IMG/VR virus record: IMGVR_UViG_2526164690_000014
Length of the DNA stretch: 10,106 nucleotides
Reading direction: 5' to 3' (one strand)
Source: a virus
Lineage: Duplodnaviria; Heunggongvirae; Uroviricota; Caudoviricetes
Shown here in pieces: positions 1,445 through 8,318 of this stretch. Numbering within the stretch: the stretch's first letter is position 1; every line of letters begins with the position of its first letter. A program made the translations under genes and the position numbers. The notes under the pieces were generated by a model. It was not told where the DNA came from, did no database searches, and was given only the letters and a program-made list of their open reading frames with translations.

Positions 1445-1735
1445 TCATCTTTTAACTCCATATACCGCCAATACCCGTTTCATCGCGGCACTCTGGCGAC
1501 ACTCCTTAAAAATTAGGTTCGTGCTCATCTTTCCTTCCCGTTCTTCCTTGGTAGCAAACCGGTAATACACCGTTCGCCAGACCTTACCTTCGATAACCAG
1601 AAGACCTGCCCGTGCCATTTTAGCCGCGGCCTGATTTATGCTGGTTACTGTTGCGCCTGTTAGCGCGGCAACGTCCGGCGCACAGAAGCTATTATGCGTC
1701 CCCAGGTAATGAATAATTGCCTCTTTGCCCGTCAT
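1445..1735 (-). CDS. ren: Ren protein (96 aa)
   Basis: Translation MTGKEAIIHYLGTHNSFCAPDVAALTGATVTSINQAAAKMARAGLLVIEGKVWRTVYYRF... is near-identical to lambda Ren as recalled; ATGA overlap with the P stop. Confidence 0.9.
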   Translation of the reverse strand: MTGKEAIIHYLGTHNSFCAPDVAALTGATVTSINQAAAKMARAGLLVIEGKVWRTVYYRFATKEEREGKMSTNLIFKECRQSAAMKRVLAVYGVKR

Positions 1736-2433
1736 ACACTTGCTCCTTTCAGTCCGAACTTAGCTTTGAGTTCTGCGATCTTCGCCAGAGCCTGTGCACG
1801 ATTTAGAGGTCTACCGCCCATGACAGGAAGTTGTTTTACTGGTTCAGGGATCGCCTCACCACGGTTAATTCTCGCAGTCATATGGACAAGCTCATCTGCG
1901 GCCTTACGGCGTAATTCCGCATCAGTAAGCGCATTGGCCCGCATGTTCTGATACAGGTTGGTAACCAGCCAGTAGTGCGCGTTTGATTTCCACGGATAAG
2001 ACTCCGCATCCGGATACAGGCCTCGCTTCCTGCAATACTCGTAAACCATATCAACCAGCTCGCTGACGTTTGGCAGTCCGGCGATAACGGATGCTTCTTC
2101 CCGGCACCATGCAACAAACTGCCCGGGTGATGGCAGGAATGGTCGATTCTGCCGACGGGCTACGCGCATTCCTGCGTTAACCTGTTCCATTGTGGTGATC
2201 CCGTTTTCCCGGAAAGCCAGAACCCACTGGCGGCGGATTTCGTTCAGTTCGTTCTGGTCACGGTTAGCCAGGCTCGCCGGGAAAGTTGCCAGTAACTGGC
2301 TGAACACACCGTTGATGATCTGCGCTACCTGTTGTACCTGCGGCTTTTCGTCGTACTGTTCCGGCATGTTGTTGGCGATCCGACGCATCTGCTCACGGTC
2401 AAAGTTAACCATCTGTGCGGCGATGTTTTTCAT
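1732..2433 (-). CDS. P: Replication protein P (DnaB helicase loader, 233 aa)
   Basis: Full-length 233-aa ORF MKNIAAQMVNFDREQMRRIANNMPEQYDEKPQVQQVAQIINGVF... is near-identical to lambda P as recalled; its start overlaps the O stop. Confidence 0.95.
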   Translation of the reverse strand: MKNIAAQMVNFDREQMRRIANNMPEQYDEKPQVQQVAQIINGVFSQLLATFPASLANRDQNELNEIRRQWVLAFRENGITTMEQVNAGMRVARRQNRPFLPSPGQFVAWCREEASVIAGLPNVSELVDMVYEYCRKRGLYPDAESYPWKSNAHYWLVTNLYQNMRANALTDAELRRKAADELVHMTARINRGEAIPEPVKQLPVMGGRPLNRAQALAKIAELKAKFGLKGASV

Positions 2434-2854
2434 AAATCCACCCCGTAAATCCAGTCAGTGTTTGTCAGGTCGAGTTTTGGTTTGCTGGCTGTCACGCCTG
2501 CCTGTTGCTTGTTACGGTTGATTTCGAGCTGGGTCCACTTGTCGCGGAGTTTGGCCGGACTCAGCACGTTACCGGACCAGAAGTTGTCCTGGCAGGCCCA
2601 GCGGAAAAGCACACACATATCGCGGTGGTTACGTCCGTCACGTTCACGCATCAGGCGGATATCGTTAGCCCACCCTGCAAAATTCGGTTTTCTGGCTGAT
2701 GGTGCGATGGTCTTCACCATGTCAAACATCCACTCTGCGGCGGTCAGGTCTTCTGCTGTTCCCCACTTGCTGCCGCTCTGAATTGCAGCATCCGGTTTAA
2801 CCACAGAAAGATCGTTTTCTGGCTGGTCAGAGGATTCGCCAGAATTCTCGGACG

Positions 2855-2953
2855 AATAATCTTTTCTTTTTCTTTTGTTATAGTGTCTTTTGTGTCCCCC
2901 TGTTTTGAGGGATCTCCCTCATTTTTAGGGGAACCTCCCTCGTTTTGAGGGAT
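2855..2953. repeat. Lambda-type replication origin inside O: three iteron-like repeats plus an AT-rich region
   Basis: Minus-strand reading gives CATCCCTCAAAACGAGGGAGG, TTCCCCTAAAAATGAGGGAG and ATCCCTCAAAACAGGGGGACAC (about 2953-2896), followed by the A-rich tract ACAAAAGAAAAAGAAAAGATTATTCG. Lambda ori has four such iterons; here I count three. Confidence 0.7.
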
Positions 2954-3030
2954 GCACCATTCTGAGATGTTTTTATTTGGTCCTAAACATGCCGCCTTGC
3001 TGCTTGATAATATTCATTCTGACGAGTTCT

Positions 3031-3039
3031 AACTTGGCT
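3031..3039. repeat. 9-bp target site duplication (AACTTGGCT), left copy
   Basis: Identical 9-mer AACTTGGCT immediately flanks both IS10 termini (3031-3039 and 4369-4377). Confidence 0.9.
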
Positions 3040-3085
3040 CTGATGAATCCCCTAATGATTTTGGTAAAAATCATTAAGTTAAGGT

Positions 3086-3154
3086 GGATACACATCTTGT
3101 CATATGATCAAATGGTTTCGCGAAAAATCAATAATCAGACAACAAGATGTGCGA
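3086..3154 (-). ncRNA. IS10 RNA-OUT antisense RNA (approximate ends)
   Basis: Placed from established IS10 biology (pOUT transcript antisense to the transposase 5' end). In the sequence, CACATCTTGT (3091-3100) and ACAAGATGTG (3142-3151) form the expected inverted repeat spanning the transposase start codon region. Confidence 0.45.
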
Positions 3155-4355
3155 ACTCGATATTTTACACGACTCTCTTTACCAATTCTGCCCCGAATTA
3201 CACTTAAAACGACTCAACAGCTTAACGTTGGCTTGCCACGCATTACTTGACTGTAAAACTCTCACTCTTACCGAACTTGGCCGTAACCTGCCAACCAAAG
3301 CGAGAACAAAACATAACATCAAACGAATCGACCGATTGTTAGGTAATCGTCACCTCCACAAAGAGCGACTCGCTGTATACCGTTGGCATGCTAGCTTTAT
3401 CTGTTCGGGCAATACGATGCCCATTGTACTTGTTGACTGGTCTGATATTCGTGAGCAAAAACGACTTATGGTATTGCGAGCTTCAGTCGCACTACACGGT
3501 CGTTCTGTTACTCTTTATGAGAAAGCGTTCCCGCTTTCAGAGCAATGTTCAAAGAAAGCTCATGACCAATTTCTAGCCGACCTTGCGAGCATTCTACCGA
3601 GTAACACCACACCGCTCATTGTCAGTGATGCTGGCTTTAAAGTGCCATGGTATAAATCCGTTGAGAAGCTGGGTTGGTACTGGTTAAGTCGAGTAAGAGG
3701 AAAAGTACAATATGCAGACCTAGGAGCGGAAAACTGGAAACCTATCAGCAACTTACATGATATGTCATCTAGTCACTCAAAGACTTTAGGCTATAAGAGG
3801 CTGACTAAAAGCAATCCAATCTCATGCCAAATTCTATTGTATAAATCTCGCTCTAAAGGCCGAAAAAATCAGCGCTCGACACGGACTCATTGTCACCACC
3901 CGTCACCTAAAATCTACTCAGCGTCGGCAAAGGAGCCATGGGTTCTAGCAACTAACTTACCTGTTGAAATTCGAACACCCAAACAACTTGTTAATATCTA
4001 TTCGAAGCGAATGCAGATTGAAGAAACCTTCCGAGACTTGAAAAGTCCTGCCTACGGACTAGGCCTACGCCATAGCCGAACGAGCAGCTCAGAGCGTTTT
4101 GATATCATGCTGCTAATCGCCCTGATGCTTCAACTAACATGTTGGCTTGCGGGCGTTCATGCTCAGAAACAAGGTTGGGACAAGCACTTCCAGGCCAACA
4201 CAGTCAGAAATCGAAACGTACTCTCAACAGTTCGCTTAGGCATGGAAGTTTTGCGGCATTCTGGCTACACAATAACAAGGGAAGACTTACTCGTGGCTGC
4301 AACCCTACTAGCTCAAAATTTATTCACACATGGTTACGCTTTGGGGAAATTATGA
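3147..4355 (+). CDS. tnp: IS10 transposase (402 aa)
   Basis: ORF MCELDILHDSLYQFCPELHLKRLNSLTLACHALLDCKTLTLTELGRNLPTKARTKHNIKRIDRLLGNRHLHKERLAVYRWHASF... matches the Tn10/IS10 transposase as recalled, inside the IS10 inverted repeats. Confidence 0.95.
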   Translation: MCELDILHDSLYQFCPELHLKRLNSLTLACHALLDCKTLTLTELGRNLPTKARTKHNIKRIDRLLGNRHLHKERLAVYRWHASFICSGNTMPIVLVDWSDIREQKRLMVLRASVALHGRSVTLYEKAFPLSEQCSKKAHDQFLADLASILPSNTTPLIVSDAGFKVPWYKSVEKLGWYWLSRVRGKVQYADLGAENWKPISNLHDMSSSHSKTLGYKRLTKSNPISCQILLYKSRSKGRKNQRSTRTHCHHPSPKIYSASAKEPWVLATNLPVEIRTPKQLVNIYSKRMQIEETFRDLKSPAYGLGLRHSRTSSSERFDIMLLIALMLQLTCWLAGVHAQKQGWDKHFQANTVRNRNVLSTVRLGMEVLRHSGYTITREDLLVAATLLAQNLFTHGYALGKL

Positions 4356-4368
4356 GGGGATCTCTCAG

Positions 4369-4377
4369 AACTTGGCT
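4369..4377. repeat. 9-bp target site duplication (AACTTGGCT), right copy
   Basis: Same 9-mer as 3031-3039, directly abutting the IS10 inside end. Confidence 0.9.
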
Positions 4378-4640
4378 TCATTGCACCGTTTGACAGGTAA
4401 CTTTGTAATCTCGCTAAGTTGAGAATCGGTGATTCTGTCCATTGGTTTATTCCACCCATAGGTTTTACGCAGAATGGCAAGCAGCACTTTAAACTGTCGC
4501 TTGGTCAGATCTGCGCCTGAATAAGCCTCAATCAGCATATTTGATAGTCTGGCGTAACCATCATCGAGATCTGCCACATTACGCTCCTGTTCGGCAAAGT
4601 TACCTCTGCCGAAGTTGAGTATTTTTGCTGTATTTGTCAT
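4369..4640 (-). pseudogene. O: Replication initiator O, 5' portion (N-terminal 90 codons), truncated by IS10
   Basis: MTNTAKILNFGRGNFAEQERNVADLDDGYARLSNMLIEAYSGADLTKRQFKVLLAILRKTYGWNKPMDRITDSQLSEITKLPVKRCNEAK matches the lambda O N-terminus; AGGAG Shine-Dalgarno upstream. The last codon and stop of the track ORF (4365..4640) are IS10 terminal bases, not native O sequence. Confidence 0.85.
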
Positions 4641-4649
4641 AATGACTCC

Positions 4650-4727
4650 TGTGGATTGATCCAGTAATTCCCTCAGAATTGCATATCAATTTGCTTAGAG
4701 TCCCCGGCGGCCACCGGGGATTTTTTC
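4650..4727 (+). ncRNA. oop: oop-like antisense RNA (antisense to the 3' end of the cII-like gene), with pO-like promoter and intrinsic terminator
   Basis: Plus-strand -35 TTGAGT (4615-4620), 17-bp spacer, -10 CATAAT (4638-4643, overlapping the O start codon on the other strand). A hairpin TCCCCGG-cggcca-CCGGGGA (4701-4720) followed by TTTTTTC ends the transcript. Arrangement matches lambda oop as recalled. Confidence 0.55.
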
Positions 4728-4969
4728 TTTGTGATTTCATCAAGCGCATACTTAAAAGCCCTGCTAATCGGACTGATGTCTGATGCCATTCCGAAAGCAC
4801 ACAAGACCGAAGCAATAAATCTCCAGTCCGTTCTGCTTATCTTCGATTCATGACAGCCAATCATCTTTGCCAGACCGCGCTGGGTAAGCGTTGACAGGTT
4901 GATGAGTAAATCTGTTTCTGCGCGATCAATTTCTCGCTGTGTTAGCTTGCTGTAACTTGCTTGTGCCAT
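4673..4969 (-). CDS. cII: CII-family transcriptional activator (P22 C1-like, 98 aa)
   Basis: ORF MAQASYSKLTQREIDRAETDLLINLSTLTQRGLAKMIGCHESKISRTDWRFIASVLCAFGMASDISPISRAFKYALDEITKKKSPVAAGDSKQIDMQF, located between cro and O as cII is in lambdoid phages. The match to P22 C1 is from memory. Confidence 0.75.
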   Translation of the reverse strand: MAQASYSKLTQREIDRAETDLLINLSTLTQRGLAKMIGCHESKISRTDWRFIASVLCAFGMASDISPISRAFKYALDEITKKKSPVAAGDSKQIDMQF

Positions 4970-5078: not shown

Positions 5079-5264
5079 TTATGCCGCTTGGCGGTAAGCA
5101 CTTTCTTGATACTTCAGGGCGCCAGCTGTAACGATTTCCAATCGATAGGCGTCTTTCTCTGGGATAACTTCTTTCCACTGAGAGACTGCTGCATCGCTAA
5201 TGCCTAGTGCTTTAGCAACAGCACGCTGGGTTCCGAAGTGGTCAATAACATCTTTTTTGTACAT
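5079..5264 (-). CDS. cro: Cro repressor (P22/phage 21 type, 61 aa)
   Basis: MYKKDVIDHFGTQRAVAKALGISDAAVSQWKEVIPEKDAYRLEIVTAGALKYQESAYRQAA matches P22 Cro as recalled; GGAG Shine-Dalgarno; divergent from the repressor gene. Confidence 0.9.
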   Translation of the reverse strand: MYKKDVIDHFGTQRAVAKALGISDAAVSQWKEVIPEKDAYRLEIVTAGALKYQESAYRQAA

Positions 5265-5344: not shown

Positions 5345-5995
5345 ATGAATACACAACTGATGGGTGAGCGTATTCGCGCTCGCAGAAAAGAACTCAAGAT
5401 TAGGCAGGCTGCCCTTGGCAAGATGGTTGGCGTGTCTAATGTTGCTATTTCCCAATGGGAGCGATCTGAAACTGAGCCCAATGGCGAAAACCTATTGGCC
5501 TTAGCCAAGGCTTTGCAGTGCTCCCCTGATTACCTGTTGAAAGGAGAGGATAGTCTTTCAAACATTGCCTATCACAGCAGGCATGATCCAAGAGGTTCGT
5601 ATCCTCTAATTAGTTGGGTAAGCGCAGGATGTTGGATGGAAGCTGTAGAGCCATATCATAGGCGTGCAATAGATAACTGGTACGACACAACGGTAGATTG
5701 TTCTGAAGACTCTTTTTGGCTCGACGTTAAAGGTGATTCAATGACTGCCCCGGCAGGACTGAGTATTCCTGAAGGGATGATTATTCTCGTCGACCCAGAA
5801 GTCGAACCACGTAATGGAAAGCTGGTAGTCGCCAAACTTGAAGGAGAAAACGAGGCGACATTCAAAAAGTTAGTTATTGATGCCGGTAGAAAATTCCTGA
5901 AACCACTCAATCCACAATACCCAATGATTGAAATCAATGGGAACTGTAAAATCATTGGCGTTGTCGTTGATGCCAAGCTAGCAAACCTTCCTTAA
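5345..5995 (+). CDS. c2: Prophage repressor, P22 C2 / phage 21 cI type (216 aa)
   Basis: MNTQLMGERIRARRKELKIRQAALGKMVGVSNVAISQWERSETEPNGENLLALAKALQCSPDYLLKG... with a helix-turn-helix N-domain and LexA-like C-domain (…GDSMTAPAGLSIPEGMIILVD…KLEGENEATFKKL…). Near-identical to P22 C2 as recalled. No Shine-Dalgarno, as expected for a PRM transcript. Confidence 0.9.
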   Translation: MNTQLMGERIRARRKELKIRQAALGKMVGVSNVAISQWERSETEPNGENLLALAKALQCSPDYLLKGEDSLSNIAYHSRHDPRGSYPLISWVSAGCWMEAVEPYHRRAIDNWYDTTVDCSEDSFWLDVKGDSMTAPAGLSIPEGMIILVDPEVEPRNGKLVVAKLEGENEATFKKLVIDAGRKFLKPLNPQYPMIEINGNCKIIGVVVDAKLANLP

Positions 5996-6199: not shown

Positions 6200-6309
6200 C
6201 CAGAACTTGAGTGGTTTTGGGGATGGCGCGAATTGCAGCTGCAAGACAGCGATCGAGAAGATAAGCACCTCGACGCGTCATGCGCCAAAGCCACTTAAAG
6301 GAGACCATC

Positions 6310-6615
6310 ATGGTAACCATTGTCTGGAAAGAATCCAAAGGTACGGCAAAAAGCCGCTACAAAGCTCGCAGAGCAGAACTTATTGCCGAGCGACGCAGTA
6401 ATGAAGCACTGGCGCGAAAAATTGCGCTAAAGCTCTCTGGTTGCGTCAGAGCAGACAAAGCAGCATCACTAGGAAGCCTTTGCTGCAAGAAGAAAGAAGA
6501 AGTTGTTCGAAAAAATAGAAGTATTTATTACAAGGATTCAAACCCATTAGGAAACAAAATACATGCAGTCCAAAAAATAAAATTGTACAGTAAACTACCG
6601 TACGGTGCTTATTGA
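6310..6615 (+). CDS. N: Antitermination protein N, phage 21 type (101 aa)
   Basis: AAGGAGA Shine-Dalgarno 5 nt before the ATG at 6310. N-terminal arginine-rich motif MVTIVWKESKGTAKSRYKARRAELIAERR matches the phage 21 N RNA-binding peptide as recalled. First gene downstream of pL/nutL. Confidence 0.8.
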   Translation: MVTIVWKESKGTAKSRYKARRAELIAERRSNEALARKIALKLSGCVRADKAASLGSLCCKKKEEVVRKNRSIYYKDSNPLGNKIHAVQKIKLYSKLPYGAY

Positions 6616-7709: not shown

Positions 7710-8079
7710 ATGTCAAACATCAAAAAATACATCATTGATTACGACTGGAAAACATCAATAGAAATTGAAATCGACCATGACTTAATGACAGAGGAAAAAC
7801 TTACACCAGATTAATAATTTCTGGTCAGACTCTGAATACCGACTCAATAAACACGGCTCTGTATTAAATGCTGTATTAATCATGCTGGCGCAACATGCTC
7901 TGCTTATAGCAATTTCAAGCGACTTAAATGCATATGGTGTTGTGTGTGAGTTCGACTGGAATGATGGAAATGGTCAGGAAGGATGGCCTCCAATGGATGG
8001 TAGCGAAGGAATAAGAATTACCGATATCGATACATCAGGAATATTTGATCCAGATGATATGACTATCAAAGCCGCCTGA
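7710..8079 (+). pseudogene. ea10: Ea10-like protein (lambda ea10/ssb region), interrupted by a +1 frameshift near 7803-7805
   Basis: N-terminal 34 codons MSNIKKYIIDYDWKTSIEIEIDHDLMTEEKLTPD end at a TAA (7812-7814); the remainder ...NNFWSDSEYRLNKHGSVLNAVLIMLAQHALLIAISSDLNAYGVVCEFDWNDGNGQEGWPPMDGSEGIRITDIDTSGIFDPDDMTIKAA continues in the +1 frame. Together they give about 122 aa matching lambda Ea10 as recalled; one extra base in cttAcacc. Confidence 0.65.
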
Positions 8080-8153
8080 GCGCGGCGTTACCGCATACCA
8101 ATTACGCTTCACTCGAGGTCGTTTTTCGTTATGTAATAAATAAGGAGCACACC

Positions 8154-8318
8154 ATGCAATATGCCATTGCAGGGTGGCCTGTTGCTGGCTGCCCTTCCGA
8201 ATCTTTACTTGAACGAATTACCCGTAAATTACGTGACGGATGGAAACGCCTTATCGACATACTTAATCAGCCAGGAGTCCCGAAAAATGGATCAAACAAT
8301 TATGGCTATCCAGACTAA
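8154..8318 (+). CDS. cIII: CIII protein (FtsH/HflB inhibitor, 54 aa)
   Basis: AAGGAG Shine-Dalgarno; [54 protein letters not shown] matches lambda CIII as recalled. Below the size cut-off of the supplied ORF track. Confidence 0.85.
   Translation: MQYAIAGWPVAGCPSESLLERITRKLRDGWKRLIDILNQPGVPKNGSNNYGYPD

Follow-up and report, generated by a model that had tools for sequence, protein, structure and literature searches.

The subject of the present analysis is the replication gene O of a lambda-like prophage and the replication origin that lies within this gene. The stretch of DNA analysed (the window; virus record IMGVR_UViG_2526164690_000014) is the whole 10,106-bp draft contig AIGH01000048.1 (GCA_000249835.2) in reversed orientation, and its sequence corresponds to the early part of a lambda-like prophage from an Escherichia coli O111:H11 lineage. 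In the map of open reading frames (ORFs) cro, cII, O, P, ren, and the nin genes are read from the minus strand, and the pL operon including gam and bet lies on the plus strand. On the minus strand O starts with the ATG at 4640 and ends with the stop at 2430, and it contains an insertion sequence (IS). Its main parts are the following.

4369–4640, minus strand: 5' fragment of O (codons 1–90 and two bases of codon 91), matched by the Pfam family Phage_rep_O and identical at 90/90 residues to the O protein of phage 933W.
4369–4377, no strand assigned: first copy of the target-site duplication, AACTTGGCT (AGCCAAGTT on the O strand), a 9-bp direct repeat.
3040–4368, plus strand: complete IS10 (ISVsa5 family by its RefSeq name), 1329 bp, recognized by its length, its ends, and the copy in a sibling genome.
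3147–4355, plus strand: intact IS10 transposase of 402 amino acids, Pfam DDE_Tnp_1 (E 1.5e-24).
3085–3154, minus strand: RNA-OUT, matched over its full length by Rfam RF00240 (98.8 bits; gathering score 41).
3031–3039, no strand assigned: second copy of the target-site duplication, AACTTGGCT, completing the 9-bp direct repeat.
2430–3039, minus strand: 3' part of O with the leftover origin, from the ORF map and the alignment with 933W.

The insertion splits codon 91 of O between its second and third bases and falls within the N-terminal DNA-binding domain; the ORF of the 5' fragment (4365–4640, 91 amino acids) enters the IS10 for 4 bases and then meets a stop. The match to Phage_rep_O (PF04492; E 7e-25) covers profile positions 2–70 of 95 and ends at position 70 because the IS10 cuts the domain. 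At the other end of the gene the final 124 O codons (2430–2804) are open in the original frame, and the 3' fragment is identical to 933W O at 122 of 123 residues. The elements of a lambda-type replication module are thus present, namely, the N-terminal Phage_rep_O domain (in its cut form), an array of iterons of about 18 bp and an AT-rich stretch inside the O coding sequence, and P directly downstream with its start overlapping the O stop. The uninterrupted O frame of a functional initiator was not found, as the IS10 sits in codon 91 and a 67-bp deletion, described below, shifts the frame by −1 even in the sibling genome.

The inserted element ends with CTGATGAATCCCC at 3040 and with GGGGATCTCTCAG at 4368, which we take to be the outside and inside ends of IS10, respectively, and the position of the RNA-OUT match, read from 3154 to 3085, fixes the outside end at 3040. 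The transposase starts at IS nucleotide 108 and shows one synonymous difference from WP_001339197.1 of the sibling genome, NZ_CP077567.1, where the RefSeq annotation reads 'IS4-like element ISVsa5 family transposase'. The duplicated site AGCCAAGTT agrees with the classical consensus NGCTNAGCN at four of its six core bases and conforms to NPuCNNNGPyN, the redefined IS10 target consensus (quoted in PMC4574204). With its 1329-bp length and ends, the DDE transposase together with RNA-OUT, and the 9-bp duplicated site, the element belongs to IS10 (IS4 family); IS10R of Tn10 (ISVsa5) has the same length, the same 402-residue DDE transposase, RNA-OUT, and a 9-bp duplication, and nothing notable differs.

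The IS10 promoter pOUT gives rise to the antisense RNA-OUT, whose transcription proceeds toward the outside end and shares its direction with that of the O remnant, P, and ren. The pOUT promoter was not picked up by a simple promoter scan, and its orientation was settled by the Rfam match to RNA-OUT. Outward transcription from pOUT into the flanking DNA, by which genes nearby can be activated, has been described (PMC2744996). The terminal part of IS10 also contains an ATG at 3095, from which an ORF (2973–3095, minus strand) continues over the junction in the O frame.

The sibling genome is the complete genome of E. coli O111:H11 strain 88.0502 (NZ_CP077567.1), which carries the same IS10 at the identical site, in the identical orientation, and with the identical 9-bp duplication, as well as the same 67-bp deletion. 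An exact-protein look-up of the 91-residue junction product returned two contigs, one being the window and the other belonging to GCA_000313425.1 and ending exactly at the O-IS10 junction; the contig analysed here spans the full IS10, whereas that of GCA_000313425.1 breaks at the IS junction. When the iteron/IS10 junction was used as the query, this insertion was recovered from 1 of 5,426 complete E. coli genomes. Matches of the sibling genome to the IS10-containing window were obtained at about 39 places. Judged by the sequences compared, the IS10 insertion in O is real, since the anatomy is the expected one, the same insertion recurs in NZ_CP077567.1, and its junction is found in GCA_000313425.1. 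The insertion had been recognized in an earlier note made from the window alone, which also considered the damage to be recent; the rarity of the insertion and the near identity of both O fragments to 933W (90/90 and 122/123) agree with that dating.

The second lesion of O affects the origin, where the following iterons remain.

2895–2953, minus strand: the remaining array (iteron 1, iteron 2, and a hybrid of iterons 3 and 6), from the alignment with 933W and O26 prophages and the iteron annotation of 933W.
2953–2936, minus strand: iteron 1, from the 933W alignment.
2933–2915, minus strand: iteron 2, from the 933W alignment.
2913–2895, minus strand: the iteron 3/6 hybrid, from the 933W alignment.

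In the 933W order the six-iteron origin has lost the right half of iteron 3, iteron 4, and iteron 5, and the junction of the deletion falls within ATCCCTCAAAAC (2902–2913), which forms the identical left halves of iterons 3 and 6. Consequently three iterons are left of six, and the AT-rich stretch downstream is still there. The six-iteron form, longer by 67 bp, is found in about 110 related prophages of O26, O111, and O103 strains. In NZ_CP077567.1 the 67-bp deletion alone amounts to a −1 frameshift of O, and RefSeq annotates this O as 'frameshifted; incomplete', a pseudogene interrupted by an IS.

The unrelated E. coli strain SLK172 (NZ_CP017631.1) also has this 67-bp deletion but lacks the IS10 in O. 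The SLK172 prophage has a different immunity region, with differing repressor, cro, and cII (loci L019/L021, 1004–1875); its P and ren have the same RefSeq accessions as those of 88.0502, and the O-P-ren DNA of the two differs at only two positions. Restriction of the deletion to one complete genome was therefore rejected, as SLK172 carries it as well, and at least two independent complete genomes besides the window are carriers. The presence of the deletion in the window, in NZ_CP077567.1, and in SLK172 indicates that it is real. On the same comparisons it is either older than the IS10 insertion or recurrent, and its occurrence in the SLK172 prophage points to either recurrence or spread by module exchange.

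The deletion was missed in the earlier note, which named two point frameshifts bracketing the iterons as the further damage to O. When the IS10 and one repeat copy are removed in silico, the O frame reads ...QQGGMF and then RTK-stop, the +1 frame next encodes GPNKNISEWCIPQNEGGSPK-NEGD-PSKQGDTKDTITKEK, and the original frame is back at KRKDYSSENSG... and open to the normal stop; that is, the frame is 0 up to ATGTTT (2984), +1 from there to the A-run 2867–2871, and 0 again beyond it. Both frame switches are thus present in the window. Alignment with 933W, which has an intact O of 312 amino acids, and with the closest O26 prophage reveals four length changes beneath them: +1 (2984), +1 (2922–2926), −67, and −1 (2867–2871). 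The +1 in iteron 2 and the −67 deletion sum to −66, so the middle frame still looked O-like and the loss of three iterons went unseen; the second real lesion is the 67-bp deletion, while the one-base changes are most likely errors, as argued below. O has accordingly been inactivated more than once, as had been supposed, by the IS10 and the 67-bp deletion. The total of −66 for the four length changes of the window made a functional three-iteron allele with an intact frame conceivable; this was rejected, as the original frame stops right after 2984 and the changes of the sibling sum to −67.

The three one-base changes in O are as follows.

2984, minus strand: extra A after ATGTTT (+1), only in this contig.
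2922–2926, minus strand: run of five A in iteron 2, four in relatives (+1), only in this contig.
2867–2871, minus strand: run of five A in the AT-rich part of the origin, six in relatives (−1), also in O26 strain 2313.

None of the three is found in NZ_CP077567.1 or SLK172, which are independent assemblies of the same allele, and a substitution at 2879 is likewise private to this contig. Over its 10.1 kb the window differs from 88.0502 by 16 substitutions and 12 single-base insertions or deletions (indels), 9 of which alter the length of a run of identical bases. Every comparator contradicts 11 of the 12 indels, and the twelfth (A6->A5) is common only to O26 strain 2313. The nine indels outside O, at 419, 484, 509, 1048, 7803, 8119, 8135, 8429, and 9622, occur only in this contig; they frameshift the genes for an N6-adenine methyltransferase (three times within 90 bp), NinB, a DUF2528 protein, kil, and exo, and two are intergenic, upstream of cIII. 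No other contig of the collection contained the truncated NinB product, and a look-up of the 65-residue DUF2528 fragment (indel at 7803) returned other prophages with other neighbouring genes.

The substitutions have a different distribution. Eleven of the 16 lie within positions 1–609 and all correspond to the ninE/methyltransferase allele of a different prophage, that of strain 143 (locus L009), as do three more differences at positions 1–3; the allele switches at 609–612, so the left end of the contig (1–612) is a mosaic, which may have arisen either by chimeric assembly or by real recombination between co-resident prophages. Eight of the nine methyltransferase substitutions are synonymous, and the substitutions of 1–609 represent real alleles, leaving about five unexplained (1014, 2879, 4196, 9976, and 10012). 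Real divergence of the whole contig was rejected as an explanation, as the 1–609 substitutions match the copy of another prophage and are uninformative on the indels.

The same kind of error is thus scattered over the whole contig in excess over substitutions, and an indel-to-substitution ratio above 2 is expected from a poorly polished small contig, unlike natural decay. By comparison with the independent assemblies, the three one-base indels of O are most likely errors of base calling or assembly, and all 12 indels of the contig are very probably sequencing errors. The version of the earlier note, in which all lesions of the window are real and the point frameshifts are stacked on the IS10 with P and ren preserved, seems quite improbable: the indels are present in the deposited sequence and A6->A5 recurs in O26 strain 2313, whose O is annotated as frameshifted, but the sibling with the same IS10 and deletion is free of all three, SLK172 likewise, 12 indels against about five unexplained substitutions are far from a natural-decay ratio, and the five other genes broken by indels are intact in the approximately 110 relatives. 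The O gene of strain 2313 (locus L001, 3081–4018) has A6->A5 in the AT-rich origin stretch and bears the annotation 'frameshifted', and the other O26 genomes have A6.

The small size of the contig, its mosaic left end, and its abundance of indels could also raise the suspicion that the whole arrangement including the IS10 is an assembly artefact of a chimeric contig. Such an origin is refuted for practical purposes by an independent complete genome in which IS10 is placed, oriented, and flanked by the 9-bp duplication in the same way, by the junction in a third assembly with a contig ending exactly at the IS, and by the 67-bp deletion in two independent complete genomes.

Downstream of O the following two genes are intact.

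1732–2433, minus strand: P (helicase loader), 233 amino acids, Phage_lambda_P (PF06992) over the full profile, E 5e-62.
1445–1735, minus strand: ren, 96 amino acids, from the ORF map; 'protein ren' in the sibling annotation.

The start of P overlaps the stop of O (ATGA), and P of the window shows no difference from the sibling genome. P and ren are full length, as had been reported, and are identical to their lambda counterparts at 230/233 and 94/96 residues, respectively. The earlier note saw a meaningful pattern in the damaged O beside these intact genes, and this did not hold: at the indel density of the window (1.19 per kb) the probability of no indel in P and ren together is 0.31 and that of three or more in O is 0.087, so the contrast between intact P and ren and damaged O is not significant and likewise gives no support to the version in which all lesions are real. 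P and ren are probably intact simply because nothing has hit them so far.

Breakage of O in the repeat region is common. The C-terminal O ORF of 124 amino acids stands as a gene of its own in 658 blocks of the public collection (exact match), and ten examples of split O include an iteron duplication (23 bp), iteron deletions, an IS66, one-base changes, and a different O type with TTTACC..GGTAAA repeats. In these ten examples P usually still has 233 amino acids.

Among known systems the module is closest to the O-P modules of 933W, H-19B, and O26 prophages, with DNA identity of 98.4–99.6% besides the O identities given above. It has the same iteron sequences, AT-rich region, and overlap of O stop and P start as modules of the 933W type, and the same P and ren protein accessions as relatives of this type; it differs from them in that O is split by IS10 and iterons 3–5 are deleted (67 bp, frame shifted), leaving three iterons rather than six. 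With the O/ori/P/ren region of lambda it shares the gene order, the origin in the middle of O, the closely similar P and ren, and a conserved oop/pO region, whereas lambda has four iterons and an intact O of 299 amino acids. The ori− deletion mutants of lambda r93, r96, r99, and ti12 have small deletions between iterons that cripple the origin in cis, and these deletions are in frame, with a functional O protein. In contrast, the deletion observed here equals the 67-bp spacing from iteron 3 to iteron 6, so O is frameshifted as well.

In lambda, O dimers bind the iterons and form the O-some, and the C-terminal domain of O recruits P-DnaB to the adjacent AT-rich DNA. Against this background the events at the locus could be reconstructed as follows. 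Slippage or recombination between iterons 3 and 6 at their shared left half, ATCCCTCAAAAC, would have removed 67 bp and shifted the O frame by −1; because the origin lies inside the O gene, this one deletion hits both the protein, acting in trans, and its binding sites, acting in cis. IS10 inserted in codon 91, inside the N-terminal DNA-binding domain, duplicating 9 bp. As the N-terminal domain ends at residue 90 and the C-terminal domain follows the deletion in the wrong frame, no initiator would be made; without O there would be no O-some at the origin, and P would be unable to deliver the DnaB helicase. By analogy with lambda the induced prophage is probably incapable of its own replication, and the loss of autonomous replication proposed in the earlier note is therefore probably correct, being further favoured by the additional lesions of the sibling prophage.

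These lesions were found in the 88.0502 prophage, whose neighbours are rcsC and yfaP-yfaT and whose genes include those for the type III effectors nleA and nleG (locus L006, 4815000–4860500): a second IS10 downstream of Q, an ISEc22 copy within tail gene J, and a large-terminase gene with an internal stop. According to its gene content this is a multiply defective, effector-carrying prophage and not a Shiga toxin (Stx) phage. It resembles the defective effector-carrying lambda-like prophages of enterohaemorrhagic E. coli in its nleA/nleG genes, its several IS insertions, and the terminase stop seen in the sibling genome, and only the combination of lesions is specific to this lineage.

Taken together, the data favour, with a probability of roughly 0.85, an ordinary decaying prophage in which the IS10 and the 67-bp deletion knock out O and the extra one-base indels are most probably errors. 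Several points weigh against this account. The change A6->A5 is shared with O26 strain 2313 and could be a real, recurrent homopolymer slip. The O protein might also come in trans, as the sibling genome contains two more matches to the origin region besides this prophage, and three iterons are sufficient for lambda according to Moore 1981, as cited at second hand in PMC7466680.

The latter two points belong to an alternative in which the module is damaged and the prophage nevertheless replicates upon induction by means of O from co-resident lambda-like prophages of the same specificity. With three origin-region matches in the sibling genome, up to 6 O copies per genome in relatives, an intact P, and the sufficiency of three iterons for lambda growth in that second-hand citation, such rescue deserves consideration but is unlikely in view of which iterons were kept. 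In the PMC7466680 study the four iterons adjoining the AT-rich region were bound efficiently by O, iterons 2 and 3 best, and the two distal iterons were weakly bound; in its nomenclature iterons 1, 2, and 3 are deleted here, so that the best-bound sites are lost and the two poorly bound distal iterons remain together with iteron 4, the weakest of the proximal four. Thus O supplied in trans might not rescue replication, since the deletion also damages the origin in cis, and the further structural lesions of the prophage in the sibling genome point in the same direction.

Under the favoured account of an O knocked out by the IS10 and the deletion nothing is new in kind: all components come from well-known families, and RefSeq already marks the sibling O as a pseudogene. 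What the locus does illustrate is that a single repeat-mediated deletion can disable the origin and the initiator together, because a lambda-type origin lies inside O and most iteron spacings are not divisible by three; the 67-bp deletion is present in an unrelated strain as well. It also demonstrates that compensating frame shifts can conceal a missing repeat block and that one-base frameshifts in a small draft contig need to be checked against sibling assemblies before a biological reading.

Expression of the module may outlast the loss of O. The ORF at 6280–6615 (plus strand) encodes an arginine-rich motif, GTAKSRYKARRAELIAERR, which in a reading of the sequence is like the RNA-binding motif of lambdoid N antiterminators; its counterpart in 88.0502 is annotated as hypothetical only. 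Transcription from pR probably still crosses the IS10 with N antitermination, and induction may thus still lead to expression of P, ren, and the late genes by such read-through with the N-like protein encoded at 6280–6615. A rather speculative idea, to which little credence is given, is that the dead module is not inert, with pOUT transcribing the O remnant, P, ren, and nin in the repressed lysogen, and/or the retained iterons and the intact oop/pO region acting as a sink for the O protein of related phages that enter the cell. If true, related phages would be excluded from the host by either effect, which could account for the frequency of split O next to intact P.

The remaining features of the early region are taken from the ORF map.

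5079–5264, minus strand: cro.
4673–4969, minus strand: cII.
5345–5995, plus strand: repressor of the P22-c2-like type.

Between cII and O lies the oop/pO region, which has the same sequence as in 933W; at 4615–4735 (plus strand) it comprises a pO promoter-like site and an oop-like antisense RNA with a terminator hairpin, intact and identical to 933W. A full-length Rfam match (8141–8199, plus strand, 88.5 bits) places the lambda cIII thermoregulator element at the beginning of cIII.

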